This document shows positions 41,739-61,925 of a stretch of 64,000 nt of DNA, piece after piece (position 1 is the first letter of the stretch; each line of letters starts with the position of its first letter). Source of the DNA: a virus; the IMG/VR virus record IMGVR_UViG_3300032032_000003, positions 7,553 to 71,552 of that record; one strand, 5' to 3'. The notes under the pieces are model-generated. The model was given only the letters and a program-made list of their open reading frames with translations. It did no database searches and was not told the DNA's origin. Made by a program: the position numbers and the translations under genes.

Positions 41739-41774
41739 AGCCTGGGTATATTCTCGAGTGTATTCAGGCTTTTT
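41739..41774 (+). terminator. Rho-independent terminator at a convergence point
   Basis: AGCCTGGGTATATT...AGTGTATTCAGGCT stem (with G-U pairs) followed by TTTT. Confidence 0.65.
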
Positions 41775-45937: not shown

Positions 45938-46240
45938 TTATTGAACCGCGATCGCGATTTCTTCTACACTATCTATAATTTTAAAGATAGTCTTTTTACT
46001 TTGCGTTGAAAAGAGCTCAGAATTATAACCTTGTATTAGGCATTCCTTGATATATAGTGGATCAAGTCTTTTTAAAACAGGTCGTGAATATCTTAACTCC
46101 TTAAATCCCCAAGTATTCAAACACAGTAAAGCAAGATCTATTTCTTCTTCAGTATAAAAAGCCATCCGATAACCTTTAATTACTTTGGCTTTCGGTTCTT
46201 TTTTCTTAAATGGAATTACCTTTGCCTTCTGTGTGTCCAT
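45938..46240 (-). CDS. Hypothetical late protein
   Basis: TATAAATA (46246-46253) lies 5 nt upstream of the ATG. Confidence 0.7.
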   Translation of the reverse strand: MDTQKAKVIPFKKKEPKAKVIKGYRMAFYTEEEIDLALLCLNTWGFKELRYSRPVLKRLDPLYIKECLIQGYNSELFSTQSKKTIFKIIDSVEEIAIAVQ

Positions 46241-46255
46241 ACTTCTATTTATAGG

Positions 46256-47677
46256 TCAAAACACTTTGATATCGTATTTTTGAGCAAACATTTTACCGTC
46301 TTGAACTGTATTTACAATTGGTTTACCTTTTATATTAAGGCTCGTATTTAGTAACATAGGGCAACTTGTTTGATCTTTCCATGCTACTAATAATTGATAT
46401 AGGCCTGGATGTTGTTTTCTATTAACTGTTTGAACTCTTGAAGTACCATCAACATGAACTATTGCAGGGTATTTCTCAGGCTCTTTGCATTTGACTGTAT
46501 ATTGCATATATGGAATTTCTTTAGTTGGCATTTCAAAATATTTGTGTGCTTCTTCTTCTAATATAACAGGAGCAAAAGGTCTAAATTTCTGTCTCCTTTT
46601 TATTTTATTTACTCTGTCCTTTATGTCTGTGCCTCGAGGGTCTGCTAATAATGAACGGTTGCCTAATGCCCTTGGGCCAAACTCTGCTCTGCCGTTAGCT
46701 ACTCCTACTATATTTCCTTTAAGTAATTCCTCTATTAATTCTTGTGCAGGATATGGACCTGGTATATTGTATCCTAAATAAGGTGTAAACTCTACGTGCT
46801 GGTGTGTATGTGCTAGAACAGCTCCTAATGATGATCCGGCATCTCCTGGGTTAGGCATTATCCATACATTATCATAATACTCTAATGCAATAGCATTTGC
46901 TACACAATTTAATGCACAGCCTCCTTGCAATACTAAATTATTTGAGATGTCCCACTTTTTAGATATCTCTAATATTTTTCTAAATTCTTCTTCGTATATT
47001 TTTTGTGCTGCTGCTGCAAAATCAAAATACATTGTATTATGTGGATCGTCTTGATCCCACGCAAAATTTCTGCAACCTTTTTGTAGGTTTAATTGTAATA
47101 GTTTTTTCATGGGTTCATAATACTTGTCTGGATCTCCATACGCAGCCATACCCATTAAAATATATTCGTCTTCGTTTGCTTTTAATTCACACCTGTCTGT
47201 AATGGCAGAATAAAACATTCCTAAAGAAGTGGGATAACGTGTGCTCCATCGCTTACCTAGTGCACCACTCCATATACTTGAAGTCGTCCACTCTCCAATG
47301 GCATCTATTACTATAATATTAGAATTAATAAAAGGACTTGTAAACATACCCGCTGCTGCATGTGACTGATGGTGTGTGTTGTATTTTACTGTCCAATAAT
47401 CTAAACCATAAGATCTAAGTAATGCTTTAACATTATTCTTTTGCCATTTTTGTCCACTATATACACGTCTTGTATTTTTCCAAAAAGGACTTTCGTGCCA
47501 ATATAATGCCTCGGGCTCACCATATTGTAATGCATCGTTTACTAATGCCCGGTTTAAATTCTTATCATTTTTAATACCACTATACCGTTCGGCATGTCCT
47601 GCAAACAATATTTGATCTTCTTCAATCACAGAAATTGCCGCGTCATGGTGGCCTGCTGATAATCCCCATCTAATCAT
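46256..47677 (-). CDS. Carbamoyltransferase (NodU/CmcH/TobZ family)
   Basis: HDAA, ERYSGIKND, HH.SHAA, DAIGE, MGMAAYG, GGCALN, PGDAGSSLGA, EFGPRALGNRS, FRPFAP, HVDGTSRVQTV, LNTSLN. Start moved to MIRWG. Confidence 0.95.
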   Translation of the reverse strand: MIRWGLSAGHHDAAISVIEEDQILFAGHAERYSGIKNDKNLNRALVNDALQYGEPEALYWHESPFWKNTRRVYSGQKWQKNNVKALLRSYGLDYWTVKYNTHHQSHAAAGMFTSPFINSNIIVIDAIGEWTTSSIWSGALGKRWSTRYPTSLGMFYSAITDRCELKANEDEYILMGMAAYGDPDKYYEPMKKLLQLNLQKGCRNFAWDQDDPHNTMYFDFAAAAQKIYEEEFRKILEISKKWDISNNLVLQGGCALNCVANAIALEYYDNVWIMPNPGDAGSSLGAVLAHTHQHVEFTPYLGYNIPGPYPAQELIEELLKGNIVGVANGRAEFGPRALGNRSLLADPRGTDIKDRVNKIKRRQKFRPFAPVILEEEAHKYFEMPTKEIPYMQYTVKCKEPEKYPAIVHVDGTSRVQTVNRKQHPGLYQLLVAWKDQTSCPMLLNTSLNIKGKPIVNTVQDGKMFAQKYDIKVF

Positions 47678-50393
47678 TTTTATAAGGATGCAAAGATAAC
47701 AAGATATCTCTTTTTCTGTCTTTAAGTTGTTGGTGTTTGTTTTGGTGTAGGAAGTGAAACCTGTTAAATGCAAGTTTATGTCTTATTGAATTATACTTTT
47801 CATTTTTATCATCTGTTGATATTCCTTTCCAATTCTCTAGTTGATCTATTATGCACTGGAGTCTTTGTTTTGGATCTTTAAAGGCATCATAAAATTCATC
47901 AAACATTTCTGGGAAAGTTTGATACCCTTGTTGTCTTAAATATCGAAGTGTGTATGGAAGGCCTACAATAATAAATGGGTGATAGTTCATTAAAGGTTTA
48001 TATGTTTTTTCTGTAATAAACAGGTTCATTAATTGATTGGAATCGTTTTCATAAAAAATTGTTTCGTTGACTAGGGAAAAATATGATGATTCATATAATG
48101 TTTTGTCAAAATACCTATCATCTTGTTGTAGTTTTTCTGATGAAATATCTAATTTTAACTGGCGGGGCTCTCTAAAATATTCATTTAAATGATCTCTCTG
48201 TGTTTTAGTATTAAATAAATCATTATTAATTTGATCTAAAGTCGACTTCCAATGCCTTTTGTATTGTGCTGCTCCTCCATCTTCTCCATAGAATCGTAAT
48301 AAGAAGCTGATATAAGAGTTAGTTTTATCATAACCTAATCGATCTAATTCTGATACAATCGCTAGTCTATGTTGTCTAGGTAAACCATTAAAACATAATA
48401 AGTCGCGGGTTTTATCTTCCGCTGTTGGAACACTATGTATTGTTTCACGTTCATAGATAGAGTCTGGTTGAATAAACTCTCTTGCGTTGTCTATAGTAAA
48501 CAATCCTCTTTCCAATGGATCTGTTCTTAATACATATTGTTGTCTATATAAAAATTGAAAATAATCATAACCAATTGTTTTGGTAAATTCACTTTGTTGT
48601 CCGGCCGGATTATTGGCAATCCAATGATCATAATTCTTAGTAAAGTTTATATCGCCATATATAAAATAAGAATATATTCCATTTAACTTTTCGGCTGTCA
48701 TGGCCCCATTTAATTTTTCCATCCACCAATGTGAATCTAAATGGAATCCTTCGTGAGGGAATACAAAAACTATTTGCATCATTCTCTTTCTAGCTAGATC
48801 TTTTACTTTTTCCGGTATGTCTGCTATAAGGTTAGAAATGCCTTCTAAATAAGCAATTTCGATAAAATAATAATTATGTAAAGGATGGTTTTTACCGTGT
48901 ACATTTTCATTAAATTTGTTTATGTCCATCAACTTATGATTTAAATCTGCGTATTCATACCACCATTGCATGTTTGATCTTTGAGAAGCAGTAACATTTA
49001 AACCATCTCTAAAACAGTTTCCAGGAACATATGGCTGATCTTGTGCAATAGGCCTACCTGATACAGGTCCTTGCTTGAGCTTGTCAAACCACAAGTAAAA
49101 AATATCAGTAGGATTGTGAAAAGATCTATCAACTATAAAAGGAGGAACAATTTCCCCGAAACGATCTGGACTTGCAACCGCGTTGGACGGCATACCTATT
49201 TCCCATTGTCCTGATTTCCAATGAGGACGTCTAGGTTGTGGAGGATAATCTTTAGCAAACTCTTCCATTGTGAAGTAATGCTCCCATGGCACTTGTATAG
49301 AATTTTGTTCTTTTGATTTAAATACCTCATCTATATTGTCTACTCTTTCCCAATTTTCTTTTATGACTTCACCTAAACGTTTTCTATTAGCCCATAGTCG
49401 TGGTGAGAGCTCATTATATTTGTCCTCTAACTCCTCATGGCTAAGTGCTGTTATTCTCTCCAATTGATTTGTTATATAGTCTATTCGTCTTTCATAGTCA
49501 GGGTGTGACATGGCTTGTAAAATATCTGGAAACATGTCTTCAAAAATATCAAAGCCCATTTCTTTTAATTTTTTATAGAGATTTTGATCTCCTAATATTA
49601 AGAAAGGCCTTAAACCTATTATAGGTTTAAAAGTTTTTTCACTTAAGAATATATCTGAATGAATACACGATTCTGTAACTACTGTAAGAAAATGTCTGCT
49701 CCAATTTTCAACATCACCTAACGTAGCAATATCATTACAGCTTTGTCCTACCCACTCTGACATTAATGGTTGGTCTTCTATTTCATGTTCTTCATCTAAT
49801 ATAATTGGATTTTTAAATTTGTAATCATTGTGTGGTTCCATGGCTGAGATAATTCCAAAATTTTCTAAGCCTTGATCATGTATCTTATTTAAAAGTGTGA
49901 CTCTATGATCATGTGGTTTTCTGTTGTAGCACAAAAAATGTTTACCATTTTGTCCAACTGTTCCATCTGGTTTACGGGCTAACTTAGGAGGGTTTATCCA
50001 TTTCGCCCTTGCATAACTTGCCCAATGATTGTCTATATACTTTAACCAATAACTAAAATAATATCCTTTGTTTGTATTGCCTACATGATAAACTTTATCG
50101 AAATTATCTTGTATCAATTGGTGTGCGTCTTTTCTTTTATTAATGCAATTTGTATTTTCCCAGTCTGGTCCTGAGTACACCGCTGCTTCAGTACATGTAG
50201 TTTCTGAAATAAACTTTTTTAATCCTTTTAAATCATCACCCAACCAGGTTGAGTTTATCAAACAAATGTTCCCCGGCAATCTATCTAAAAGATTTTGAAC
50301 GATGCCTGTTTCCATTTTGCTTATAGATGTTGAAGCCTCTGGCCAGCCGGCTTGTGTTGGGTCGTCAAAACCAATTGTATAATATCTATTCAT
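47670..50393 (-). CDS. 907-aa protein with two GT10-like (GT-B) 'TEKT.KP' domains
   Basis: Two copies of (F/L)LC(Y/F)N..P..HR ... V.E(S/T) ... (S/T)EKT(F/Y)KP....PF...G.....L...G(F/Y)..F. Confidence 0.65.
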   Translation of the reverse strand: MNRYYTIGFDDPTQAGWPEASTSISKMETGIVQNLLDRLPGNICLINSTWLGDDLKGLKKFISETTCTEAAVYSGPDWENTNCINKRKDAHQLIQDNFDKVYHVGNTNKGYYFSYWLKYIDNHWASYARAKWINPPKLARKPDGTVGQNGKHFLCYNRKPHDHRVTLLNKIHDQGLENFGIISAMEPHNDYKFKNPIILDEEHEIEDQPLMSEWVGQSCNDIATLGDVENWSRHFLTVVTESCIHSDIFLSEKTFKPIIGLRPFLILGDQNLYKKLKEMGFDIFEDMFPDILQAMSHPDYERRIDYITNQLERITALSHEELEDKYNELSPRLWANRKRLGEVIKENWERVDNIDEVFKSKEQNSIQVPWEHYFTMEEFAKDYPPQPRRPHWKSGQWEIGMPSNAVASPDRFGEIVPPFIVDRSFHNPTDIFYLWFDKLKQGPVSGRPIAQDQPYVPGNCFRDGLNVTASQRSNMQWWYEYADLNHKLMDINKFNENVHGKNHPLHNYYFIEIAYLEGISNLIADIPEKVKDLARKRMMQIVFVFPHEGFHLDSHWWMEKLNGAMTAEKLNGIYSYFIYGDINFTKNYDHWIANNPAGQQSEFTKTIGYDYFQFLYRQQYVLRTDPLERGLFTIDNAREFIQPDSIYERETIHSVPTAEDKTRDLLCFNGLPRQHRLAIVSELDRLGYDKTNSYISFLLRFYGEDGGAAQYKRHWKSTLDQINNDLFNTKTQRDHLNEYFREPRQLKLDISSEKLQQDDRYFDKTLYESSYFSLVNETIFYENDSNQLMNLFITEKTYKPLMNYHPFIIVGLPYTLRYLRQQGYQTFPEMFDEFYDAFKDPKQRLQCIIDQLENWKGISTDDKNEKYNSIRHKLAFNRFHFLHQNKHQQLKDRKRDILLSLHPYKND

Positions 50394-51648
50394 ATATAAA
50401 TGGGTCCTGTTTTCTAATACGTTTTAAGTTCCAATCAGGGTCTATGCTTGCTATCTCTGGTAATTCTTCCTGCCAAGTTTGATCTCTTACTGCATCAATT
50501 CTTTCCATTTCTAAAATAAACCGTTCAACCATTTTAGGATTTTCTTTTTGTGAATTCATAAAATCTATAAAACCATTAATGTGTTGTATCAAAGTCTGTA
50601 TTTTCCATGGTTGTTCGTATGTTTCTTTTAATTCTTTTTCCCACTCTCTCCATACAATTTCTATTTCTTTCTTTTTTCTCTCAGGTAAAATTCCAACGTT
50701 TAACCAAAAAGGAAAGTGAACTAGATTTATATTAAAATTAAATGGTTCATCTATTAATCCTTGTCTTAACAATTCACGATGGAAGTCTGGTATGTGCATA
50801 GCGTTTTGTATGCTAACTGTAGCATTAATACCAAACTCTACTTTAGGTGTTTTTTCTTTCATTTCTAATCTGTTATTGACCCACTTCTCCCAATCTAAAC
50901 CTGTACGAACAAACTCTCCTCGAGGGCCGTAGCCATCTAAACTTGCTGACATTGTTACCCTTTTAAACTTACCCCATGAATCTAATATGTTTTGACTTTT
51001 ATAAAAGAACTGACTTAAATTTGAATTATAAACTAAATGTACACTTGTTCTTCCCATTTCTATAAGTCTATTAATAATCCTATAATGTTCTTCCATCATT
51101 AAAGGTTCCCCACCAGCAAAATATATTTTTTCTACTATAGGAAAATAAGGCTCTATTTCCTCCCACAATTCAAAAACTCTTCCAGGTTCCGGAAGGTCAG
51201 GTGGTAAACTACCCCATATCTTTTTAGTATCTTTATACCAACCAGAGCTTAGTTGTGGGCCACAGCTACGACATGAGAAGTTACATATATTAGAAAAACG
51301 AAAGTCCCAATATGCTAAATCCATATCATCTAATGTTCCGTCTTCTTTTACATTGTCCCATTTTTTTAAATGAGGAGCAAAGTCTCTTGCTGAGGTATTT
51401 CTAAAAGATTCATTACCTGTGTCTTCTTCTTTAAAACAATTAACACATTCAGGAGGTCTTTCCCCTGCTAACATCTGCCTTCTGATTCTACGCATAGGAT
51501 CATCATTCCAAATCTCTTTCAAAGTATTGTTTTTTAGTGAACCTACTTGATGATCTATATTTCCAAGACAACAAGCATACACATCTTTATTAGGCCATGT
51601 ATGTAAATGTATTACAGGTAATACGCACTTAGTATCTTTATCTGTCAT
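50386..51648 (-). CDS. Radical SAM enzyme with N-terminal twitch/SPASM domain
   Basis: CVLP..H....P....ACC ... C..CF..E; CNFSCRSC; FAGGEP; SLDG. Confidence 0.9.
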   Translation of the reverse strand: MTDKDTKCVLPVIHLHTWPNKDVYACCLGNIDHQVGSLKNNTLKEIWNDDPMRRIRRQMLAGERPPECVNCFKEEDTGNESFRNTSARDFAPHLKKWDNVKEDGTLDDMDLAYWDFRFSNICNFSCRSCGPQLSSGWYKDTKKIWGSLPPDLPEPGRVFELWEEIEPYFPIVEKIYFAGGEPLMMEEHYRIINRLIEMGRTSVHLVYNSNLSQFFYKSQNILDSWGKFKRVTMSASLDGYGPRGEFVRTGLDWEKWVNNRLEMKEKTPKVEFGINATVSIQNAMHIPDFHRELLRQGLIDEPFNFNINLVHFPFWLNVGILPERKKKEIEIVWREWEKELKETYEQPWKIQTLIQHINGFIDFMNSQKENPKMVERFILEMERIDAVRDQTWQEELPEIASIDPDWNLKRIRKQDPFIYE

Positions 51649-52855
51649 AATCTTTTATCAAGTCATAAAATTCTGGGAAAACATCTTTATACTTTTCTTT
51701 TCGTATAATGTCTTGCCTGTTAGTAATGTCAAAGAATCTAAATAAAAGATTCTCATCACGTTCAATTGTTAAGTAGTTTTTTACATTATCATAAAAAATT
51801 TCACCTTCAGCTTTTTCAAGTATCTTTTCCTTTATATTTATAGGAAGGATAGCAGGATCATAGTAGTCAGGTTCCGTAACATAGTTAGGCGAAACGTAAG
51901 GAACAATCTCTTTAAAATATTCATGAAACTCTTTTAAATAAAATATGTTTAATATAGAAATTGTTTGTAGTATAGAACAAAAGATATTATCATGTCGTTC
52001 TTCTAATTCTTTAAACCATTTAATTGTTTCTAAAGTTTTGTCCCATTTAGCAGGGAACCTCATATATTCGTTTCGTCTTTCTATGTCGTCTATAGACCAC
52101 ATTAATTGTACTTCTTTAAATTCCTTCCAAGCATCTTCGTAGTCTTTGCCTGATACTGTTGTGTTTGTAGAATAAACTAAGGTAACATTTTTTGCTACAT
52201 CTTTTTTAACAAGCTCTTCTAAAAACCCTAGGTGTTTGTCTATAAGTAACGGCTCTCCACCGTTTACATAAACATACCTTAATTCGTCTATGTGTGGTAA
52301 TAATTTATCCCAAAAGTTTTGATCTTTTGGCCAGTTCATATTAGTTTGTGGAACCTCTAAATAGCTCTTCTCTAAATCTAAAAGTTTCCATTCCTTTTTC
52401 CAACGTGAACTTGAAATAGGATTACATGTTCTGCATGCTAAGTTACAATGGTTTCCTAGACGTAGTTCTATAAATTCATAATTAACTTCTTTTAGTGTAC
52501 CGTCTATGTTTGTTATTTTTATAGCATCTTCTTCTTTAAAATTTAACCTTTGAGATTCAACTGTTCTTTTACTAGGGTTACCGGCTGCTTCAGAGTTCCA
52601 ACATTTTTTACATTGATCTGGATACTCTCCATTAAGCATTTTTAATCTAACATCATTAAAACTTTCACTGTTAGTTATTTTGTTGAAGTCATATTTAGTG
52701 GCCAATAGCGTATTAAAGACTCTGGTTTGTGAGATTGTAAAGTGTGCATTTGAAACACCATCTAGTGTTTCTGCCTCACAACACAAACTAACCTGTCCGT
52801 CAGGGTGTGTTGCTAAGTGATTCCACGGTAATGGACAAAATGATTTAGATGCCAT
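51638..52855 (-). CDS. Radical SAM enzyme with N-terminal twitch/SPASM domain
   Basis: FCPLPWNH...PDG.V.LCC; C..CW..E; CNLACRTC; NGGEP; SIDD. Start moved to MASKSF. Confidence 0.9.
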   Translation of the reverse strand: MASKSFCPLPWNHLATHPDGQVSLCCEAETLDGVSNAHFTISQTRVFNTLLATKYDFNKITNSESFNDVRLKMLNGEYPDQCKKCWNSEAAGNPSKRTVESQRLNFKEEDAIKITNIDGTLKEVNYEFIELRLGNHCNLACRTCNPISSSRWKKEWKLLDLEKSYLEVPQTNMNWPKDQNFWDKLLPHIDELRYVYVNGGEPLLIDKHLGFLEELVKKDVAKNVTLVYSTNTTVSGKDYEDAWKEFKEVQLMWSIDDIERRNEYMRFPAKWDKTLETIKWFKELEERHDNIFCSILQTISILNIFYLKEFHEYFKEIVPYVSPNYVTEPDYYDPAILPINIKEKILEKAEGEIFYDNVKNYLTIERDENLLFRFFDITNRQDIIRKEKYKDVFPEFYDLIKDYDR

Positions 52856-54140
52856 CAAACCACTCCTTACCTGGATCATTTAATATCTCTCTGTATGTCA
52901 ACTCTTGATCTCTTATCTTTTCTAAAAACATTATATTTTTCTTTCCATTGTGTAGACCTTCCCGTAGTTCTTCGCCTTCCCATTGTTGTTCAAAACTTGG
53001 CCTTTTGATTAAGGCTTTAAGTGAATCAATATATACCTGTGTCTTCCATGTTTTTCTTGGTTCCATGTATTCTATAAGTTCATTACAATATGGCTCTACA
53101 ATAGATTTAGGCAACGCGTCTGGTGCCATAATAACATTAGGTGTAAAAGCGTATGTAAATTTAAAATAAGATTTTACATCTAGTTCTGTTACAACATCAA
53201 ACAAATCTTTTAATCCAAATAGTCCTGGTGTTGTAAGTGTAACATCAAACACCATGCCGTCATCTCCATATTCTTCATTTATCCACAGTCCTTTTTTAAA
53301 ATTAACAAGCCATTCGTCCCACTTTATTCCTGTTCTTATATACTCACCTATTGCTCCTGCACCATCAATGCTTGCACATATATTCATGCTTTTAAATCCG
53401 TTTAACATATTATATAAGTTATAATGTTTATAATCAATTCTACTGAGATTTGTGTTGTAACGTATAGTAATCTCTTTTTTCCTTTTGGAGTCTTTAAGTT
53501 GATCCATTATTGTCCAATGTCTTTCCCACATTAAAGGCTCTCCACCCACCCAATAAATTTCTTCTATTACATCTTGATCAACTGCCGCTTGTAGTTCTTC
53601 TTCTAAAACTTCTTTTTGGAAGTTTGTTATTTTCCTTCTGTTGTTAGGTTGTAGCCACGGATCTTCTTGCATACGATCATTTATTTTATTCTCTGCCTCC
53701 CAAGATGAAGATAGTTGATCACCACACATTCTACATTTGAAGTTACATAGATTAGATAAACGATAATCATATGACACCGGCACCATTGTTGTATGGCCTG
53801 TTTCGTCTGTCGTGTCTAATATGTCTTGTATTTTATGTGGGAATAGTGTGTCTACAAAATAGGATCTATATGTATGTAGGTTTAAAACATTCTCATTACA
53901 TACGACGCATTGAGGAATTGCCTCGCCTGCTAACATACGCTTTCTTATGTCTTTCATATATTCACTATTCCAATGATGTTTTAATGATAAAGGATCAAAC
54001 GTTACGTCTGGATTTTGTTCTCCTGTGTCAATATATTGTTTCTGAAAGTCTGAATCTTCTCTACTAGCACAACACAAGCGTCGTTCACCTTGCGGGCTAA
54101 CGTAAGTATGTGTCCATGGTGCTGTGCAAAGATACTTCAT
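52845..54140 (-). CDS. Radical SAM enzyme with N-terminal twitch/SPASM domain
   Basis: CTAPWTH...PQG..RLCC; CNFKCRMC; VGGEP; SIDG. Start moved to MKYLC. Confidence 0.9.
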   Translation of the reverse strand: MKYLCTAPWTHTYVSPQGERRLCCASREDSDFQKQYIDTGEQNPDVTFDPLSLKHHWNSEYMKDIRKRMLAGEAIPQCVVCNENVLNLHTYRSYFVDTLFPHKIQDILDTTDETGHTTMVPVSYDYRLSNLCNFKCRMCGDQLSSSWEAENKINDRMQEDPWLQPNNRRKITNFQKEVLEEELQAAVDQDVIEEIYWVGGEPLMWERHWTIMDQLKDSKRKKEITIRYNTNLSRIDYKHYNLYNMLNGFKSMNICASIDGAGAIGEYIRTGIKWDEWLVNFKKGLWINEEYGDDGMVFDVTLTTPGLFGLKDLFDVVTELDVKSYFKFTYAFTPNVIMAPDALPKSIVEPYCNELIEYMEPRKTWKTQVYIDSLKALIKRPSFEQQWEGEELREGLHNGKKNIMFLEKIRDQELTYREILNDPGKEWFDGI

Positions 54141-55321
54141 TCGTATTTCCATCCATGGTCTGTTAAGACTTTATAAAACTCTGGGAAGAATTCTCTAAAG
54201 TCTTCTTTTCTATATTGATCACTTTGTATTACATTAGGTGCAAACAATTCCCATTCTGAAGGTATGCTTTCTTTGCCATTCATAAAATTTATTATTTCAA
54301 CTACTCTAGGGTCTTCTTTTCCTAAATGCTCTTCTACCACAGGTTTTACATCTTCCGGAATGTTTGTTATACAAAAATGCCATGGACCGTGTACTAAATT
54401 TAAATATATATTTTCGCCTTCAAAGTATTCTAAAAATTCAGGTATATACCAAACGTTTAGAGTGCTTACTGTATGAGCAATACATATATGATACTTATCA
54501 CTATGTTTAGATATATACTTTAACCTTTTAAAATTTTCTATAACATGATCCCATTTTGCTGGGTGCCTCATAAATTCATATCTATTTTTTATTCCATCTA
54601 AACTAAAATCCAATTGAACCTTTTTAAATTGGTTTAATATTTTAAGTTTCTCATCGTCCCATATTGTTCCGTTTGTATTATAATGTAAAGATATATCTTT
54701 TGAATAACCTAGTTCAATGGCCTGTTCTAATAGCTTCCATTGTTTCTTCATTAACATAGGTTCACCACCGTACATGTCGATATATTTTATCTTAGGTAAA
54801 TGACTGTGCATATCATTCCAAATAGCACTATCATCTTCAAACGATTTATTAAACTCTCTAAAATATTCTTTAAACTCTAATGCACCTGAGGCTTTATCTC
54901 CATAACCATCATGTAAAGCTAAGAACTCTTTGTTCCAAAAAGAACTATTGTCTGGACCACAAGTTCTACATTTTATATTACAAGTTGTTCCCATATTAAG
55001 ATCTAATATTTGAACCTGTGTACTTCTGTCAAACTCTGCTCTGCCTTCATTGTCTGTAATTCTTTTACTTTTTCTACCAACGTTCTCTTGGCTCCAACAA
55101 GAGTTACAATGTGGGTCTTGTATTCCTTTATCTAAATTGTGTCTAATTTGATTTGCTGTATGACTATTAATAGCCTCGTCTAAACTATTTTTACGAATGT
55201 TTAACACATTACCCAACTCATCTTGATAAGGAATTGTTTGTAAACAGCAGCTCGTACATGTACCTTTGTTGTCTACACGAACTCCTTTGTCTAAATTAAC
55301 ACAGTAGAAGTCACTCATCAT
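54137..55321 (-). CDS. Radical SAM enzyme with N-terminal twitch/SPASM domain
   Basis: YC.......G...SCC; C.SCW..E; CNIKCRTC; YGGEP; NTNG; SLDG. Confidence 0.9.
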   Translation of the reverse strand: MMSDFYCVNLDKGVRVDNKGTCTSCCLQTIPYQDELGNVLNIRKNSLDEAINSHTANQIRHNLDKGIQDPHCNSCWSQENVGRKSKRITDNEGRAEFDRSTQVQILDLNMGTTCNIKCRTCGPDNSSFWNKEFLALHDGYGDKASGALEFKEYFREFNKSFEDDSAIWNDMHSHLPKIKYIDMYGGEPMLMKKQWKLLEQAIELGYSKDISLHYNTNGTIWDDEKLKILNQFKKVQLDFSLDGIKNRYEFMRHPAKWDHVIENFKRLKYISKHSDKYHICIAHTVSTLNVWYIPEFLEYFEGENIYLNLVHGPWHFCITNIPEDVKPVVEEHLGKEDPRVVEIINFMNGKESIPSEWELFAPNVIQSDQYRKEDFREFFPEFYKVLTDHGWKYE

Positions 55322-56825
55322 AATCGCCTAACGGCTCGTCTATGTTTTTATTATCAGGATCTAATATCCAACCTTCTTCTTTTGCTATTCTGTTTAGATC
55401 TTCCTCTCCAACGTTGTCTCTTGTACTATCGCCAGATGTTAATGTTGCAATATTTAATATTGTTGGTGGCAAAGCATCTAGCCAATCTGTTAATATTTCA
55501 GGAAACACACGAATATCCTTTCCTCTCCTTATATCGTATTGTTCATAAAATGATTTAAAGTCTCTCCACAATGAGGTTTTAGAACTTGTGCGCCTATGTG
55601 GTGCGTCAACATGATCTAAATAATCTATTAAACGTTCTATATTTCCTCTTTCTATTCCTGTCCACAAACCTTTGTCGTCTTGTGTGGCATACCAGTCCAT
55701 AAGTTTCTTTCTAACATAAATTTTAATGTGATCGGGTAATGCTAGTGGACTTTGAAAACTAGGGAAACGTAATAGATTCAAAGTAACTGTTGGTGACTTT
55801 GTATTTTTAATTAGTTTTAATTTATAAACATGATCTAAAAATTCTGTAATTGAAAACAAGCATAAACTATTAATAGTCATCATTATATGAAGGCCTTCAT
55901 AGTTTCCTTCTGCAATAAAACGTCGCATGTTCTTGTCCCATGTTTTCCATATAAAATTGTCTCTTACATACTCTTGATGTTCTCCGTAACATTCTGCGCT
56001 TGTGTAAATGTGAAACTTTTTAATGTCTTGGCTTTTCTTAATTAAATTATCTAAAATTTTCTTTTTACATATTAAGTTACTATTAATTGCCAAACGCATT
56101 TCAGGACGTGCTTTCATTTTCTTAAACAGTTTCCATGTCTCTCCTGACATTAACGGTTCACCACCTGTAACTCTCAGCTCTTCTAATTCATCTGCTAGGC
56201 CTCCATCCCACCAATCCCAGAATGCTTTTATATAAGGATTTGTTTCAGGTGTTACTGCATCTCTTCCAAAAGGCTCTGTCCATTTACCATCTTGTTGAAA
56301 CGCTGCTGCACCATCACTAACTAAATTCTGATAAGGTCCATCCTTCTTAATATCTTTAGCCCATGTAGTAGAGAAACTTGCATTACAATAACTACACGCT
56401 AAGTTACATACTCTATCAAATGCTATTTCAAATGTTTTTAAATTTGTATTATCATTGAAGTCTGCGTTGTATGCTATGTCTAATTGTTCAGGTGTATATA
56501 TGTTGGATTTAAATATCCTGTCTGAAGGGTTCTTATCTCCTGGTATGTCTTCCATTTTCCAACAATACTCACACTCGCGAGGACGATCACCTTCTTGCAT
56601 CATCTTACGCATTGCTTTTTTGTGTTTTGTGTTGTGTATGGCTGAAGGGTTTCCTTCTAGTTCTACTAATGGAATTTTATGTGCCGGAGGGTGATGACAG
56701 CTAGCAGTTGTCCCACTACCTAACCATGTAGTAGCGTTATACCATTTGGCACCACAGAAACTTGCAGACTTAGTATCTAAGTTTTCTTTTCGCCACTTAA
56801 TTAACTTTTCTACTTCTTTAGACAT
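55311..56825 (-). CDS. Radical SAM enzyme with N-terminal twitch-like domain ('SCHHP' subtype)
   Basis: SFCGAKW...SCHHP..HKIP; ECEYCWK.ED; CNLACSYC; TGGEP. Confidence 0.9.
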   Translation of the reverse strand: MSKEVEKLIKWRKENLDTKSASFCGAKWYNATTWLGSGTTASCHHPPAHKIPLVELEGNPSAIHNTKHKKAMRKMMQEGDRPRECEYCWKMEDIPGDKNPSDRIFKSNIYTPEQLDIAYNADFNDNTNLKTFEIAFDRVCNLACSYCNASFSTTWAKDIKKDGPYQNLVSDGAAAFQQDGKWTEPFGRDAVTPETNPYIKAFWDWWDGGLADELEELRVTGGEPLMSGETWKLFKKMKARPEMRLAINSNLICKKKILDNLIKKSQDIKKFHIYTSAECYGEHQEYVRDNFIWKTWDKNMRRFIAEGNYEGLHIMMTINSLCLFSITEFLDHVYKLKLIKNTKSPTVTLNLLRFPSFQSPLALPDHIKIYVRKKLMDWYATQDDKGLWTGIERGNIERLIDYLDHVDAPHRRTSSKTSLWRDFKSFYEQYDIRRGKDIRVFPEILTDWLDALPPTILNIATLTSGDSTRDNVGEEDLNRIAKEEGWILDPDNKNIDEPLGDYDE

Positions 56826-58197
56826 TCCATTCCTCCAGTAGATGTGCCATTCCAGGATATACCTTTGTAAAGTCCTTTCCCCTTCTCATATCATAAGCCT
56901 TAATAAAATTAACAAAATCCTTTCTAAATTTTAGTTGTGTTGGTTCTTGTAATAAGTAATGACACCAACGTTGAAGTTGATCATACTCTTCTAAGTATAG
57001 CCTTGCCCACTTATCAGGCGAGTTGTATTTTAACCAACGTTTACCTTGCTTTAAAAATATACCTACAAAATATTTTCTAGTGTCTACATCTAATAACGTT
57101 GATTGTAAGTGAGGAGGCCATCTTAAATAATTTAAACTAATAGGAACCCTATTATTCTCTAAACATTTATTAAATTCTATTCTTAGTTTCATTACATCTT
57201 CTATAAAATTATAAAATCCATGTAAACACAATATATTCAATGTTGTCATTATAGCAACAAGCGAATTTGTTTCTGTTAATATTCGTCTACAGTTTTCATA
57301 CCAGTAGTCGTAATCAATTCCGTCCCTGGCATACTCTGCATATTCCCCTGAACTTTCAACACTTGTATAAACATCTATTCTATCTACTTTATCTTCTAAC
57401 CGGTTTATATACTTAATTAATTTATCAATAAGTTTTTTATCTGTTCCTAAATTAGTATTAATTGCTATTTGTAACTGTGGTTGTGGATTGTCTATTATAT
57501 ATTCAAGTGTTCTCCACACATCTTTTGACATTGTAGGCTCTCCACCAGTAACTCTAAAGACCTTTAAGTGTGGCAATACTTCTGGCATATATTTAAACCA
57601 AGCTTCCATATAAGGGTTGTCTTCACTACGCTTATATGGAAACTTACCTACCTGTTTTAGATATTCTAAATCATGGTTGCCATTTTCTACAGGATAGTTG
57701 CCATGTTCTTCTACATCTTTCATCCATGTAGATGATATGTCCGGACTACAATAAGCGCAGGCAAAATTACATGAATTGGCAAACGATACTTCTAGGTATG
57801 AAGGATAAACATCATCAGCCGGTGAGCTGTTAGCAATTTCTTTAAACCTATCCCATGCCCACCAATCAGATGTTTTGTAATGTCTATCTGAGAAATAATT
57901 TTTATCTAAGTCCTCTATTTTCCAGCAGTAGTCACATTCCTTTGGACGGACGCCGTTAAGCATCTTAGCTCTTTGTTCTTTTTTATAGTGTGAGTTGTGT
58001 AGTGCTGCTGGATTAGCTTTTACTTCTTCTACAGGGATCTTATGTGCTGATGGATGGTGACAGCTATGGTTGAATCCATTTTGAAGGTACAGAGTTGTTT
58101 GTAGCCACTTGGCGCTACAAAATGAAGGACTAACTGTATTAATCTCATCACGTTTTAATTCTAAAACCTTTATTCTTTCTTCATTAGTATTGATCAT
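56818..58197 (-). CDS. Radical SAM enzyme with N-terminal twitch-like domain ('SCHHP' subtype)
   Basis: SFCSAKW...SCHHP..HKIP; ECDYCWK.ED; CNFACAYC; TGGEP. Confidence 0.9.
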   Translation of the reverse strand: MINTNEERIKVLELKRDEINTVSPSFCSAKWLQTTLYLQNGFNHSCHHPSAHKIPVEEVKANPAALHNSHYKKEQRAKMLNGVRPKECDYCWKIEDLDKNYFSDRHYKTSDWWAWDRFKEIANSSPADDVYPSYLEVSFANSCNFACAYCSPDISSTWMKDVEEHGNYPVENGNHDLEYLKQVGKFPYKRSEDNPYMEAWFKYMPEVLPHLKVFRVTGGEPTMSKDVWRTLEYIIDNPQPQLQIAINTNLGTDKKLIDKLIKYINRLEDKVDRIDVYTSVESSGEYAEYARDGIDYDYWYENCRRILTETNSLVAIMTTLNILCLHGFYNFIEDVMKLRIEFNKCLENNRVPISLNYLRWPPHLQSTLLDVDTRKYFVGIFLKQGKRWLKYNSPDKWARLYLEEYDQLQRWCHYLLQEPTQLKFRKDFVNFIKAYDMRRGKDFTKVYPGMAHLLEEWNV

Positions 58198-58782
58198 TCA
58201 CTTCTTACCAATTCCCATAAATCTCTTCAATGGATTAGATTTACCATTTACAAAATCCCAAGGGCCTTCATAAGGTAACTCGTCTAACATAATATAATCG
58301 GTAAGGTTATTTTTAAGTGCAAACAAATCTATATCTTCGTATGCTCTAACATGATCTTTTTCACTAAAATCATTATTACCTTGTATTATATAATGTGTAC
58401 CCTCGGGTATATTATCAAACCACGTATCATATACTTTCTGACTAACGTGTTCTGTACTTGTATTTATTACTAAATCAGGTGTGTAATCGTAGGAATACTT
58501 AGACATACACCCACCCCAAGTAGTGTATTTTTGTGCACACCACTCTAAATAAAATTCTTGTTTATCAACACAGGTTATATCCTCAATGGTTAACATGTCT
58601 GCCAACACACCATACCAGGATCCAAAAATAATACATGACTGAACCCGTGGAAAGCGCTGGTTTACCTCGTCTACTAACCAAGCTTTTGCGTTTATTTGAC
58701 TTGGCCAAAAAGCATCAAGTCCATCTGGGTGGGTTCTAATTAGTTCCATCCAACGTTCTAGTTGTGTGTGATTAAAGTTCAT
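58198..58782 (-). CDS. Class I SAM-dependent methyltransferase-like protein
   Basis: IFGSWYG, CVD, DLVINTSTEH, IQGNN, RFMGIGKK; paralogous to 1913..2581. Confidence 0.7.
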   Translation of the reverse strand: MNFNHTQLERWMELIRTHPDGLDAFWPSQINAKAWLVDEVNQRFPRVQSCIIFGSWYGVLADMLTIEDITCVDKQEFYLEWCAQKYTTWGGCMSKYSYDYTPDLVINTSTEHVSQKVYDTWFDNIPEGTHYIIQGNNDFSEKDHVRAYEDIDLFALKNNLTDYIMLDELPYEGPWDFVNGKSNPLKRFMGIGKK

Positions 58783-59482
58783 TTTCTATTTTCCTTGCAA
58801 GACTTTGTATTGATTCCGGGCCAGGGTGTCCTCCATCTTCTGTATAGTCTATTTGTTGAAGTTTCATCTTTTTAAATTTCTTTTCCCAGTACATAAGATG
58901 TTTTGTTTCGTTCAAATCAAACCATGTCCATTCAATTAGTTTTGTATTCCCTTTACACATCATTTCAACAGAGTCCATTACTAATTTAGAATATTCAATT
59001 AAGTTTAATTCGTTTCTTTGTATAAAATCACTATATGGCTTGTTTAACCATGGGCCTATTTTGTCAATATAATCTGGCTGTCTAAAATCTCCTATTCTAA
59101 AAAATGTTGTCCAACCCATCACAACCATATATGGCCAGCCATTTTCTTTAACTTGATCTATAAGTTTCATCCAGAAATGAAAATTAGATTCTGCTGGATA
59201 ACCAAAATTGATTACCTGCCTTTGTGTTTTAAGAACATTATGTAATTTTTCTTTATCTTGTAATTGATATCCTGCTGTAGTGGAACATCCAAACAATAGA
59301 ACAGATTCTTTCCATTTAGTATAGTCAGGCAGTTGACGATCTCTATTAGTTTGCAATCCATTAAGATCATTACCTTTTGCTGTTGCTATAGGTTTGTAAT
59401 ATCTACTTCTCATGGCATAAGGAGTATCTCCATCTAGGTTCCCTAATGGTGTGTCATAGATTTTCATTTTATTCCTTTCCAT
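58772..59482 (-). CDS. SGNH/GDSL-like hydrolase or acyltransferase
   Basis: LFGCSTTAG (block I), INFG...ESN, D.GHPG (DxxH). Confidence 0.65.
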   Translation of the reverse strand: MERNKMKIYDTPLGNLDGDTPYAMRSRYYKPIATAKGNDLNGLQTNRDRQLPDYTKWKESVLLFGCSTTAGYQLQDKEKLHNVLKTQRQVINFGYPAESNFHFWMKLIDQVKENGWPYMVVMGWTTFFRIGDFRQPDYIDKIGPWLNKPYSDFIQRNELNLIEYSKLVMDSVEMMCKGNTKLIEWTWFDLNETKHLMYWEKKFKKMKLQQIDYTEDGGHPGPESIQSLARKIENEL

Positions 59483-60054
59483 ATTACATTGTTTTTAGGC
59501 ATCCATTTATACCCTTCTTCAACATCTATATAATAAACGTTTTGTAAAAACTCTGAACCCGGGTCAACATCAAACCAAAATCTAGATTCTAATTTTATAT
59601 TTTTAAATGAATCTAATTTGTATGGCTCTCTACTGTGGCCTGGAACATGTCTTTTATGTTGATACAAGGCATTCATTCCTTTTGCATCAACATCATGTGT
59701 CATGTATATTATTTTAAAACCTTCTTCTTTTGCTTTCTTTACACAATAGTCCCACAAATAAAATCCTAATTGATTGTGTCTAAATTCTTTTAATATGTGA
59801 TAACGACAAACTCTAACTGCAACATCAGGTGTTCCCACATAAGTATCTGGCTCATAAGAACAAAACCCTGCAATCTTATCAAACTTATCGTAACGACTAT
59901 TGCATGTTATTAGTAAAGGTGTTCCGGGTGTTGTCTCTACATTATATTTGTCGGGAGTAATAGATGTATTACCCTCTTCTAATGCTTGTTCTTGAATTAA
60001 CCTTACTGCTGACTCAAGTTCAGTGCCTTTTATGTCGTCAATAATCTTATGCAT
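59464..60054 (-). CDS. GNAT-family acyltransferase
   Basis: RYHILKEFRHNQLG..L.......AK..G...I.M motif A; ALY motif B. Confidence 0.65.
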   Translation of the reverse strand: MHKIIDDIKGTELESAVRLIQEQALEEGNTSITPDKYNVETTPGTPLLITCNSRYDKFDKIAGFCSYEPDTYVGTPDVAVRVCRYHILKEFRHNQLGFYLWDYCVKKAKEEGFKIIYMTHDVDAKGMNALYQHKRHVPGHSREPYKLDSFKNIKLESRFWFDVDPGSEFLQNVYYIDVEEGYKWMPKNNVIWKGIK

Positions 60055-60704
60055 TCAAAGTCCTTCTGTCCATCAATTGATGCTATTAAATAATGCCTTA
60101 AATCATTTCCCTTATGATAAACTGCATGCTTATATCCTATGTTTAAAAAGTAACATCTTTTTGTCTTCATTTCAACTACTTTGTGTTCTCCGTTTACCCA
60201 AAAATGATTTTCAACTCCTTCGTTGCCACTTAAAGGAATGATTACCCTCATGGCATAAGTTGTATTATAATCTATGTGTGGTGGTACCTGTCCTCCAGGA
60301 CGCATGCGAGAGAAACGAACCCGTATCAATTTATCGTGGAAAGCTCCATTGAGATGATGTTGTAGTGTGGAGTCCTTGTAAAAATCAACGGGTTCGTCCC
60401 AATTATGTTCGTCCATAGAGAACGGAATCTTGCGTGAAATTTTTTGTTTGGTTGTGTATGTTGAGGCGTCTTCTAATTCTTCTTGTTTACGACATTCTGT
60501 TAAATGGAATGTTTCTACGTCTTTGTAAGTATCAGATGCAATTGAATTACTAGCTACTGCTAGGCCTCTGTGTGATGTGAAATTATCTTGCCACTTGTCA
60601 TAATGTTCCCACAGAAAATCTTCTATGAGATTGTAATCTAATTCTATTGGTAGTTCGGCAATATGTGGATAGTGCCTCTTGTTATATTTTAACATCTCGA
60701 TCAA
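60030..60704 (-). CDS. Aspartyl/asparaginyl beta-hydroxylase-like 2OG-Fe(II) oxygenase
   Basis: RVRFSRMRPGGQVPPHID (HxD), RV.IPL, YFLN.G.KHAV...G...R..LI. Confidence 0.8.
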   Translation of the reverse strand: MIEMLKYNKRHYPHIAELPIELDYNLIEDFLWEHYDKWQDNFTSHRGLAVASNSIASDTYKDVETFHLTECRKQEELEDASTYTTKQKISRKIPFSMDEHNWDEPVDFYKDSTLQHHLNGAFHDKLIRVRFSRMRPGGQVPPHIDYNTTYAMRVIIPLSGNEGVENHFWVNGEHKVVEMKTKRCYFLNIGYKHAVYHKGNDLRHYLIASIDGQKDFECIRLLTT

Positions 60705-61422
60705 TCATCCTAATAAGTTGTCCACCTAGATCTAAAGGATGCCAAATAACTCTCCTGGCTGTCCTGTGATGTACTTCGTGGAACCCTTCACCTAATGTTA
60801 ATAATCCTACCCACATATCACTATGAGCTTCTCTGCCCCTATGTGAAAATGTGAATACCAACGATCCTATCATTTTAGCAAACCCTGCTGGAATAAGCCA
60901 AGCATATAGTAGTGCATAAGGATCTATAATAGTTAATAGTATTGCCCAAACACCAACGACATGCCAATAATATTTAACTTGTGATCTGTGTAATTTGTCT
61001 TTTAATAAATCCCTAACAAATTTGAAATTTATATCTATAAGAACTTGTCCAAAGTATGCTAACATTACTCCTCTATAATAAGGCGAGTGTGGGTCTTCCT
61101 TTGTGTCAGCATATTTATGATGTTCACGATGATTAGCAGCCCAAGTAAGAGCAGGGCCAATCATCATTATATGAGGCCCGAATAATAATACATATTCAAA
61201 CCATCTAGGGCATTTAAAATTTCTGTGTGAGAAATATCTGTGATATCCCATTGTAACACCCAACATAATATAACAATACATGCCAACTGCAATTGCTATT
61301 GTAGCGGGTGTCCAATTAAATAGGAATAAAGAGAGAACAGCGGTTACTTGAGCAATAAGCTGTCCTGCCAAAAGGGTTACTGGTGCCCATGATTTGTTTT
61401 GTTTAAATACTGCTTTTCTCAT
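60682..61422 (-). CDS. Membrane fatty-acid desaturase (delta-9/DesC-like)
   Basis: His boxes GYHRYFSHR, HREHH..ADT..DPHSP and GEGFHEVHH; TM helices. Confidence 0.92.
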   Translation of the reverse strand: MRKAVFKQNKSWAPVTLLAGQLIAQVTAVLSLFLFNWTPATIAIAVGMYCYIMLGVTMGYHRYFSHRNFKCPRWFEYVLLFGPHIMMIGPALTWAANHREHHKYADTKEDPHSPYYRGVMLAYFGQVLIDINFKFVRDLLKDKLHRSQVKYYWHVVGVWAILLTIIDPYALLYAWLIPAGFAKMIGSLVFTFSHRGREAHSDMWVGLLTLGEGFHEVHHRTARRVIWHPLDLGGQLIRMIDRDVKI

Positions 61423-61730
61423 TGATCCTTTACTCTGGAGCGAAATTTACGAACTGTTCCATCATAAAATAACATACGAATCCAAGGAGTACCTCTCCTC
61501 ATTCTAGGGACTGTATATTCCCAACCTTGATCTTCATTGTCTACCCATATGACGTGATAGCCTATCCAGCGGTTGCTCGGATACCACCTGGCACGTCCTC
61601 CCTCCGCAATCAACTTTTCCAATGTCCAAAAATAGCAATTGTTCTTCGAAGTAAAGAGCCTAACAGGCCAAGACCAGAAGAATATCAACATCAGGAAGAA
61701 GGTAAATAATACTCTAAGTTTCAATTTCAT
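61419..61730 (-). CDS. Small membrane-anchored hypothetical protein, first gene of the enzyme operon
   Basis: N-terminal TM helix; TATAAATA at 61742-61749; ATGA overlap with the desaturase. Confidence 0.7.
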   Translation of the reverse strand: MKLKLRVLFTFFLMLIFFWSWPVRLFTSKNNCYFWTLEKLIAEGGRARWYPSNRWIGYHVIWVDNEDQGWEYTVPRMRRGTPWIRMLFYDGTVRKFRSRVKDQ

Positions 61731-61741
61731 TCCTATAAGAG

Positions 61742-61842
61742 TATTTATAGTAGAACTAAAGCAGTTTTATCATCTCTCTCATAGAGATTTATAAGAGTTT
61801 ATTGATTCTTTTAAGTCTTTTGGTGTTGTAGAATTATAAATA
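61742..61842. promoter_or_regulatory. Back-to-back late promoters (minus 61742-61749; plus 61835-61842)
   Basis: TATAAATA on each strand in the divergent intergenic region. Confidence 0.75.
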
Positions 61843-61925
61843 CACTATAACTTATATAATTTCTTTGTCATATACCGTATAGCGGCCTAATGATGTGCTT
61901 AACCAATTTAGGGGACAAGGAAACC

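Follow-up and report, generated by a model that had tools for sequence, protein, structure and literature searches.

In Nod-factor tailoring, a methyltransferase (NodS), a carbamoyltransferase (NodU), a fucosyltransferase (NodZ) and enzymes of acyl transfer (NodL and NodA) act on one glycoconjugate. To our knowledge, Nod pathways contain no radical S-adenosylmethionine (SAM) enzymes, and the reactions of radical SAM enzymes are among the hardest chemistry in biology. BtrN, the 2-deoxy-scyllo-inosamine dehydrogenase of butirosin biosynthesis, is the founding twitch radical SAM enzyme and possesses a single auxiliary [4Fe-4S] twitch domain. In phages, pelagimyophages carry a hypervariable island with glycosyltransferases and radical SAM cassettes, the cassettes being mentioned without analysis in the relevant passages of Zaragoza-Solas et al. 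2020 (PMC7029224), and phage carbamoyltransferases that make 5-carbamoyloxymethylcytosine, paired with ThyA homologues, are described in the corresponding sections of Yang et al. 2021 (PMC8670742). Here, a 64,000-nucleotide stretch of viral DNA was analysed, hereafter the window, which comprises bases 7553-71552 of the 71.5-kb IMG/VR record IMGVR_UViG_3300032032_000003 (CheckV completeness 43%) and carries a block of 14 genes in which six N-terminal-twitch radical SAM genes lie together with a glycosyltransferase-like (GT-like) gene and a carbamoyltransferase gene. This cassette is real, conserved and accessory, and is a variant of the phage-borne glycan-type tailoring islands; its core, made up of six N-twitch subfamilies, an unnamed GT-B family and the carbamoyltransferase, is without a characterized counterpart. 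The cassette stands, in our judgement, an even chance of being an accessory biosynthetic system by which a sugar-bearing molecule is made or edited in the cytoplasm of the infected cell. A sugar-bearing product is suggested by the neighbours of the radical SAM genes, namely the GT-B modules, the O-carbamoyltransferase, in one variant a sugar enzyme of the short-chain dehydrogenase/reductase type, and in bacteria GT2, GT1 and PhyH genes.

The block resembles each of these systems in part. It would confer the same kinds of decoration as the Nod-factor set (methyl, carbamoyl, fucosyl-type and acyl), a likeness of logic only, whereas the chitin-synthase-type backbone enzyme has no counterpart in the block. 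Its radical SAM proteins share the single auxiliary twitch domain with BtrN, but this domain is C-terminal in BtrN and N-terminal in the window, and the sequence match is weak. With the pelagimyophage island, as far as it is described in PMC7029224, the block shares its setting in marine T4-like phages and in a plastic island with glycosyltransferases and radical SAM cassettes; that island, however, is placed there between VrlC and gp14 with tail fibres, whereas the block has a ligase/exonuclease group on one side and a secreted Thr/Asn-repeat protein on the other, and gp14 was not located.

The 14 genes occupy positions 46256-61730 on the minus strand, with neighbours overlapping by 0-35 nt and no intergenic gap, as seen in the open reading frame (ORF) listing and in the junction sequences, and the gapless run proposed in the initial annotation of this stretch is thereby confirmed. 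The window is approximately 98% coding, and overlapping genes are the general rule there. In the order of transcription, the genes are as follows.

61419-61730, minus strand: 103-residue protein with a hydrophobic N-terminal helix (transmembrane or signal anchor), family-less, read from the sequence
60682-61422, minus strand: short membrane diiron desaturase-like protein of 246 residues (PF00487)
60030-60704, minus strand: oxygenase-like protein of the Asp/Asn beta-hydroxylase family (cupin, 2-oxoglutarate/Fe; PF05118)
59464-60054, minus strand: GNAT acyltransferase (PF00583)
58772-59482, minus strand: 236-residue protein, SGNH-like by motif alone, from residues invariant in four sequences
58198-58782, minus strand: 194-residue protein, a lead for a class I SAM methyltransferase (ESM Atlas)
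56818-58197, minus strand: rSAM6, N-terminal-twitch radical SAM protein (NF033640, 298.5 bits)
55311-56825, minus strand: rSAM5, N-terminal-twitch radical SAM protein (NF033640, 288.9 bits)
54137-55321, minus strand: rSAM4, N-terminal-twitch radical SAM protein (NF033640, 285.3 bits)
52845-54152, minus strand: rSAM3, N-terminal-twitch radical SAM protein (NF033640, 311.6 bits)
51638-52879, minus strand: rSAM2, N-terminal-twitch radical SAM protein (NF033640, 354.8 bits)
50386-51648, minus strand: rSAM1, N-terminal-twitch radical SAM protein (NF033640, 376.6 bits)
47670-50393, minus strand: 907-residue protein with two homologous GT-like modules of predicted GT-B fold (hhalign, AF2, Foldseek)
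46256-47677, minus strand: O-carbamoyltransferase of the NodU/TobZ/NovN type (PF02543 and PF16861)

The ORF of the carbamoyltransferase opens at a TTG at 47773, and the start typical of the family (MIRWGL) falls on an ATG at 47677, giving an overlap of 8 nt with the upstream stop; judged by this family-typical start, translation most likely begins at the ATG rather than at the TTG. The 32 codons preceding that ATG are plain open frame overlapping the GT-like gene, and at the other end just 15 nt lie between the stop at 46256 and the following start at 46240, which leaves no space for a 33-residue partner peptide of the carbamoyltransferase. At the C-terminal Tyr-Asp/Glu tails of rSAM1, rSAM2 and rSAM5 (..IYE, ..DYDR and ..DYDE) the following gene already begins, its ATG being embedded in TAT-GAx, and owing to this overlap the tyrosine tail may reflect translational coupling instead of function.

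All six radical SAM proteins match the NCBIfam family NF033640 (N_Twi_rSAM) at 285.3-376.6 bits, the curated cut-off being 170 bits, with a profile coverage of approximately 1-397 of 398, and a six-frame search of the whole 71.5-kb record returned exactly six such proteins, in agreement with the six twitch radical SAM genes originally called. In rSAM1 numbering, all six proteins share C8, C27, C68, C71, C122, C126, C129 and G179-G180-E181-P182 without exception; the CX3CX2C motif, the four auxiliary-cluster cysteines of the N-terminus and GGEP are retained throughout. A cut-off passed end to end and a four-cysteine auxiliary domain placed before the CX3CX2C core are shared with the family at large, and what is distinct here is that six subfamilies come as one fixed set, accompanied by genes for GT-like proteins and a carbamoyltransferase. 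Homologous loci from relatives, other phages and bacterial metagenome-assembled genomes (MAGs) were collected and numbered L001-L142. The paralogues are 21-30% identical to rSAM1, and each is 77-94% identical to its own orthologue in L003/L004. A quick maximum-likelihood tree (77 rows, three over-long rows dropped) splits the six proteins into six subfamilies, each of which also has bacterial members; branch support by the Shimodaira-Hasegawa-like approximate likelihood-ratio test (SH-aLRT) reaches 100 both in the type-3 clade and for types 5 and 6 taken jointly, and stands at 98 in type 5, 96 in type 4 and 93 in type 2. Homologues of rSAM1 number 4751 proteins at E <= 1e-10.

The AlphaFold2 (AF2) model of rSAM1 has a predicted local distance difference test score (pLDDT) of 89.8, and its closest folds in the PDB are SPASM/twitch radical SAM enzymes. 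These neighbours are mostly peptide maturases (SkfB, anSME, SuiB and CteB), alongside BlsE, DesII, viperin and a lipid synthase, at TM-scores of 0.29-0.39, and since they span peptide and small-molecule pathways, the fold leaves the substrate undecided. By sequence, rSAM1 has no match among the solved structures of the PDB, and for the N-terminal 80 residues of the rSAM1-type profile the sole PDB match is the twitch domain of BtrN, which is weak (E 0.023). The fold neighbours bear on a reading of the block as a system of peptide or protein maturation similar to that of peptides made by the ribosome and modified after translation (RiPPs), in which the radical SAM enzymes, the Asp/Asn hydroxylase, the GNAT protein and the methyltransferase would act on a peptide of ribosomal origin or on a protein of the phage, in the manner of proteusin-type pathways. 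The top of the fold list (SkfB, anSMEcpe, SuiB and CteB, with EpeE lower) is consistent with such a role, as are the NCBIfam side-matches of rSAM4, which are mainly peptide maturases at 17-39 bits, and the naming of PF05118 after protein Asp/Asn hydroxylases. However, no PqqD/RRE domain was found among the Pfam and NCBIfam matches of the six proteins, the gapless block has no room for a precursor gene, no peptidase and no exporter, and the only structural match of the twitch part, though weak, is a small-molecule enzyme. In addition, GT-B modules, an O-carbamoyltransferase and, in one variant, a sugar epimerase/dehydratase accompany the radical SAM genes, and the Thr/Asn-repeat protein encoded next to the block is equally long in phages without the cassette. 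Peptide or protein maturation is therefore regarded as improbable.

The order of genes in IMG/VR relatives is SGNH-like, methyltransferase-like, rSAM6-5-4, an insert, rSAM3-2-1, GT-like and carbamoyltransferase. A frame consisting of the transmembrane protein, desaturase, Asp/Asn-hydroxylase-like, GNAT, methyltransferase-like, rSAM6 and rSAM5 genes and, at the far end, the carbamoyltransferase gene is kept in four phage lineages, with identities ranging from 69-92% down to 36-59%, and the initial description of the genes as a tailoring block of several enzymes, carried by a T4-like phage of the lytic type, is supported. In L117 the frame is retained and no match to the carbamoyltransferase was found. 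Between lineages, the number of radical SAM genes ranges from 3 to 6. The place of the SGNH-like gene is occupied in L012 by a 2x[4Fe-4S] ferredoxin (Fer4 and DUF3470; 11222-11554, plus strand), which is likely to supply electrons to the desaturase or to the radical SAM enzymes. A rearranged variant in L114, L115 and L142 brings together methyltransferase-like, desaturase, radical SAM and SGNH-like genes and two GT-like modules in another order and on the other side of the DNA ligase, and in L114 the GT-like modules are immediately preceded by an additional NAD epimerase/dehydratase, which is of the GDP-mannose dehydratase type (PF01370, 5e-44; GDP_Man_Dehyd, 1.5e-37). Among the ORFs of L011, L012, L017 and L114 that had no assignment, nothing was identified beyond one SGNH-like homologue in L114. 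Of 20 loci whose flank at the ligase group measures at least 6 kb, 3 have the block before that group and a fourth (L114) has the rearranged variant; L115 and L142, with flanks shorter than 6 kb, also have this variant but lie outside these 20. Before the repeat-protein gene, the block was found at 5 of the 28 loci with a flank of 8 kb or more. It is an accessory island.

Parts of the set are also present in other phages. In the Ralstonia jumbo phage RsoM2USA, a type-5 radical SAM protein, orthologous to rSAM5 (52% identity), is encoded together with three DUF6071 paralogues and a carbamoyltransferase (48%), and in Marine virus AG-345-D19, a single-cell viral contig, a carbamoyltransferase gene is followed by an N_Twi radical SAM gene. 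The three DUF6071 paralogues of RsoM2USA (L001, 8002-12010) flank the type-5 gene and precede the carbamoyltransferase gene, and one DUF6071 protein is among the ORFs of the bacterial arrays; no mention of DUF6071 was found in the literature searched.

The 80 bacterial loci found with the type-1 profile comprise 56 with a single copy and 24 with 2-8 copies. In two loci from Haliscomenobacter MAGs (L017 and L019), types 6, 5, 1, 4 or 2, and 3 are interleaved with 3-4 GT-like modules and the arrays end in a carbamoyltransferase (48-49% identity), and in a Bacteriovoracaceae locus (L021) eight radical SAM genes lie in a row. Four array-bearing MAGs possess 4-12 radical SAM copies each, and the four bacterial arrays are taken to be chromosomal because the ORFs flanking them include Obg, Ham1, RsfS and FUR. 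Near the single-copy bacterial homologues, the families most often matched among 123 ORFs are Radical_SAM (9), SPASM (6), PhyH (5), GT2 (4), GT1 (3) and carbamoyltransferase (2). Judged from these sequence comparisons, the set of six types is old and co-travelling, given that it recurs across phages and bacterial arrays and that its subfamilies have bacterial members. A fixed set found in both phages and bacterial chromosomes offers enzymologists a defined, portable cassette. It is tentatively suggested, as a possibility that we would sooner doubt than accept, that the six subfamilies are an ancient co-inherited set of aquatic phages and of bacteria such as Bdellovibrionota and Saprospiraceae-type Bacteroidota which, with the GT-B branch and the carbamoyltransferase, carries out stepwise radical editing of glycans for a late coating of phage particles or of the surface of the dying cell.

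The same comparisons bear on whether the block is one pathway at all, or whether unrelated auxiliary genes (a desaturase, a hydroxylase, an acetyltransferase and a separate radical SAM/GT/carbamoyltransferase module) are packed side by side in a plastic region. The window is almost entirely coding, with overlaps as the usual state, and the desaturase, Asp/Asn-hydroxylase-like, GNAT and transmembrane protein genes were found in none of the 80 bacterial radical SAM loci. In PMC7029224, a stearoyl-CoA desaturase and an Asp/Asn hydroxylase are each named as a gene of its own in pelagimyophages, and the number and types of radical SAM genes and the presence of the GT-like gene differ between lineages. 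Such a chance assembly is nevertheless unlikely, given that the frame is kept in four phage lineages over the range of identities described above (L117 without a carbamoyltransferase match), that L114, L115 and L142 rejoin methyltransferase-like, desaturase, radical SAM, GT-like and SGNH-like genes elsewhere in a different order, and that one conserved promoter region heads the block.

The two modules of the 907-residue protein (residues ~20-355 and ~480-900) are homologous to one another (hhalign probability 99.95%, E 1e-37). The protein has no Pfam, NCBIfam or PHROG match, for Pfam neither whole nor as either half and even at E up to 10, and a tblastn search against 50,697 phage records returned nothing; an exhaustive search gave 7316 representatives at E <= 0.001, mostly single-module proteins matching one or the other half. 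The AF2 model of the C-terminal module (pLDDT 88.6; predicted TM-score, pTM, 0.89) finds only GT-B enzymes in the Foldseek listing for the PDB, with probabilities of 0.57-0.99 (0.89-0.99 for the top ten) and TM-scores of just 0.25-0.36, and T4 beta-glucosyltransferase is at rank 17. The initial annotation had called this protein a double GT10-like enzyme. The double module holds by hhalign, whereas GT10 is an ESM Atlas lead only, at 0.80 and 0.76 and thus below the bar of 0.9, and 0 of 60 homologues of the C-terminal module match PF00852 (GT10) at E <= 0.1. For these reasons, the protein is filed as one of predicted GT-B fold, from a family that is unnamed in Pfam.

A third GT-like module lies in the ligase/exonuclease group beyond the carbamoyltransferase end of the block.

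41764-43716, minus strand: 650-residue protein with a PD-(D/E)XK exonuclease domain (~30-250) fused to a third GT-like module (~366-624) (phrog_298, MGME1)

The exonuclease domain is MGME1/Cas4-like, with MGME1 as its PDB match (E 2e-10), and two GT-module profiles (A3 and A4) match the C-terminal half of the fusion (E 6e-24 and 5e-25). In L005 and L008, two overlapping ORFs encode the exonuclease part and the GT-like part separately, and 0 of 998 cultured phage records cover the fusion beyond its first third.

The carbamoyltransferase matches Carbam_trans_N (PF02543) at 118.9 bits and Carbam_trans_C (PF16861) at 188.8 bits, both above the Pfam cut-off, and its PDB relatives are NovN (7e-48), GdmN and TobZ, such that the original assignment to the NodU-type O-carbamoyltransferase family stands; against the NodU equivalog NF041651 it scores 148.4 bits, where the cut-off is 1000. 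Its two-domain architecture is the same as that of NodU/NolO, TobZ, NovN, GdmN and the phage 5-hydroxymethylcytosine (5hmC) enzyme. The solved relatives carbamoylate hydroxyl groups of natural products. It differs from the phage 5hmC carbamoyltransferase in lacking a partner of the ThyA type and in having a GT-like gene next to its own. Both points matter for a reading in which the cassette builds a glycosylated and/or carbamoylated base of the phage DNA with the help of radical SAM steps, in a way that would be akin to 5hmC carbamoylation and T4 glucosylation. Phage 5hmC carbamoyltransferases are known, and carbamoyltransferase and DNA ligase domains are associated with modified contigs in the data reported in those sections of PMC8670742. 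In the window, an ATP-dependent DNA ligase of 367 residues (43922-45025, minus strand), 42-48% identical to annotated phage ligases, lies approximately 1.2 kb from the block, close to the exonuclease-GT fusion; the rank of T4 beta-glucosyltransferase among the GT-B matches and the accessory nature of the island, which is shared with many modification systems, are likewise consistent with DNA as the substrate. Against this, glycosyltransferase-flanked carbamoyltransferases are those that sat on unmodified contigs in the same part of PMC8670742. A search with PF00303 for a ThyA-type hydroxymethylase found none in the window's own record (G000), in G001, a relative that is 99% complete, or in the fragments G002 and G003, with a positive control in 10 of 14 genomes, and no TGT/DpdA was found, including in the 99%-complete relative. 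The search for TET/JBP was silent everywhere and its control equally silent, and it is hence uninformative. The absence of a hydroxymethylase, on which the initial annotation had relied, is thus upheld, but the argument from the window alone is weak because the record is 43% complete, and it is stronger with G001. The same radical SAM, GT-like and carbamoyltransferase arrays are moreover present in bacterial chromosomes beside housekeeping genes, and the block includes membrane proteins. We consider DNA hypermodification to have a low probability; if the product does decorate DNA, it would be a new hypermodification.

The remaining tailoring genes are assigned with differing certainty. The desaturase-like, Asp/Asn-hydroxylase-like and GNAT proteins all score above the Pfam cut-offs, as had been predicted for them. 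FA_desaturase (PF00487) is matched at 58 bits (cut-off 29.7) by the 246-residue protein, which possesses the His boxes HRYFSH, HREHH and HEVHH and matches the acyl-CoA desaturases 4zyo (E 6e-11) and 4ymk (E 4e-10), which are SCD1 structures; Asp_Arg_Hydrox (PF05118) is matched at 37.1 bits (cut-off 22.6), with no PDB sequence match; and GNAT (PF00583) is matched at 31.1 bits (cut-off 20.7). Two further names from the initial annotation, SGNH-like protein and methyltransferase, are retained as leads, with no profile match to either. The 236-residue protein has no Pfam, NCBIfam, PHROG or PDB match, and its residues Ser67, Asn100, Asp216 and His219 (Asp-x-x-His) are invariant in an alignment of four sequences only; a relationship to DUF6071 was considered and rejected (hhalign probability 3%). 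The 194-residue protein has no Pfam, NCBIfam or PHROG match, and the lead towards a class I SAM methyltransferase comes from an ESM Atlas match (0.95, 202 shared features) to a cluster with Methyltransf_31 on 21% of its members, while its homologue in L114 has a weak match to HcgC (E 0.008). This gene is present in all phage variants and adjoins a radical SAM gene in the bacterial locus L025. Orthologues of the 103-residue transmembrane protein are 70-88% identical in L009, L011-L014 and L117.

If the cassette makes or edits a sugar-bearing molecule, the two GT-B modules would transfer (deoxy)hexose units from nucleotide sugars, and each of the six radical SAM enzymes would contribute a distinct radical C-H reaction on these sugars, for which oxidation, epimerization, deoxygenation and C-C or C-methyl chemistry are candidates, by comparison with the action of BtrN on small molecules. 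Methyl, acyl and O-carbamoyl groups could then come from the methyltransferase-like, GNAT, SGNH-like and NodU/TobZ-type enzymes, and a hydroxyl group from the Asp/Asn-hydroxylase-like oxygenase. The desaturase-like enzyme and the small transmembrane protein may place one step, or the acceptor, at the membrane, and the acceptor might be a virion protein, a glycolipid of the host envelope or a free metabolite. Several findings weigh against this proposal. No nucleotide-sugar synthesis gene, flippase or polymerase was found in the window, and the 99%-complete relative G001, in which the frame and the carbamoyltransferase are otherwise retained, lacks the GT-like protein. The signal from neighbourhoods in bacteria is modest, with 4 GT2 matches among 123 ORFs, and the fold neighbours of rSAM1 are mostly peptide maturases. 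The desaturase and the Asp/Asn hydroxylase may be unrelated passengers. Furthermore, no described reaction of any NF033640 member was found in the literature searched, and editing of sugars is inferred from the neighbours only. Six different radical SAM enzymes over approximately 15 kb are an unusual investment for a lytic phage. Should the set edit glycans stepwise by radicals, it would represent a kind of glycan biosynthesis without a characterized example, and should the product decorate virions or the host surface, it would bear on phage-host recognition in the ocean.

Two elements lie upstream of the first gene of the block.

61742-61749, minus strand: late-promoter-like box TATAAATA, 11 nt before the first ATG (61730) of the block (motif search)
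61760-61793, minus strand: TATAAAT box (7 of 8), a short covarying hairpin and then GAT.TTAA (comparison of relatives)

The late box precedes the orthologous first gene in all seven relatives' loci (7/7), and the proposal that such a box heads the block is well founded. In the window, 17 TATAAATA boxes were observed where 9.4 +/- 2.8 are expected, a number reached in 2 of 100 shuffles; 13 of the 17 lie within 80 nt upstream of the start of an ORF on the same strand, though only approximately 2% of the window is non-coding, and the other 4 lie inside genes. This excess, together with the placement before ORF starts, suggests that TATAAATA behaves as a genuine promoter element in this phage, and the block is probably transcribed from a T4-type late promoter. 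The TATAAAT-hairpin element occurs once per locus, in the window and in all six relatives with an upstream region, approximately 45 nt upstream of the late box, and its stem of 4-5 bp exhibits compensatory variants between lineages (CTC/GAG, CAC/GTG and TAC/GTA). A sigma70-like site with a 10-of-12 match lies upstream of the block at 61871-61844; in the scan of the window, sigma70-like sites (77 against 73 expected) and terminators (10 against 7.3) are both at chance level. A perfect TATAAATA is also present within rSAM2 (51835-51842, minus strand), 187 nt before the start of rSAM1, and may represent either a late promoter internal to the block or a coincidence. Contigs from four metatranscriptome runs contain scattered near-identical pieces of 150-540 nt over the block and its flanks, from which RNA cannot be told from carried-over DNA, nor can strand, starts or timing be decided.

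Downstream of the block, a family-less protein of 100 residues (45938-46240, minus strand) has its own TATAAATA at 46246-46253. Its gene follows the cassette in every lineage with the same arrangement, is 85-92% conserved among close relatives, and was not seen by the ligase in relatives without the cassette. The next protein, of 104 residues (45613-45927, minus strand), matches phrog_385 ('transcriptional regulator') and may be a gp33-like late co-activator, given that a related exonuclease adjoins gp33 in cyanophage S-SSM7. The baseplate genes lie 18-30 kb from the block. Decoration of the virion or cell surface, as put forward in the initial annotation, may be the outcome but draws no support from the gene neighbourhood, in which the ligase, the possible gp33-like gene and the exonuclease, rather than tail fibres, adjoin the block; an acceptor was not found.

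On the other side of the block, a divergent gene (61890-63503, plus strand) with its own TATAAATA at 61835-61842 encodes a signal peptide, a (Thr-Asn)n repeat of approximately 330 residues, a conserved Cys-containing domain and a charged tail. The Cys-containing domain has no PDB sequence match, is 50-60% identical to proteins of six Pelagibacter phages, podophages included, and is found in at least 569 viral loci; because it is common to Pelagibacter phages, the host may be SAR11. The repeat protein was considered as an acceptor of the cassette and rejected, there being no support from co-occurrence: the repeat is equally long in 22 of 23 loci without the cassette (177-370 residues, 51-68% Thr and Asn) as in those with it (243-289 residues).

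The window carries T4-type baseplate, hub and tail genes in a PHROG search, and its gp6-like baseplate protein is approximately 37% identical in amino acid sequence to those of the closest cultured phages, namely Methylophilales phage Melnitz, Pelagibacter myophages and cyanomyophages. A megablast search of the 14-gene block against the 50,697 phage records gave no match at the DNA level. Marine metagenomes contain near-identical DNA in at least 14 runs, which come from at least 11 studies and of which five may be the source sample itself, and the phage is an abundant, uncultured, marine, T4-like phage. Elsewhere in the window, a gene for a protein of 1168 residues (31023-34529, plus strand) lies in a stretch of unusual composition, with a GC content of 0.44, compared with approximately 0.36 elsewhere, and strong positive GC and AT skews, and exhibits weak PHROG matches to tape-measure, lysin and endolysin families.

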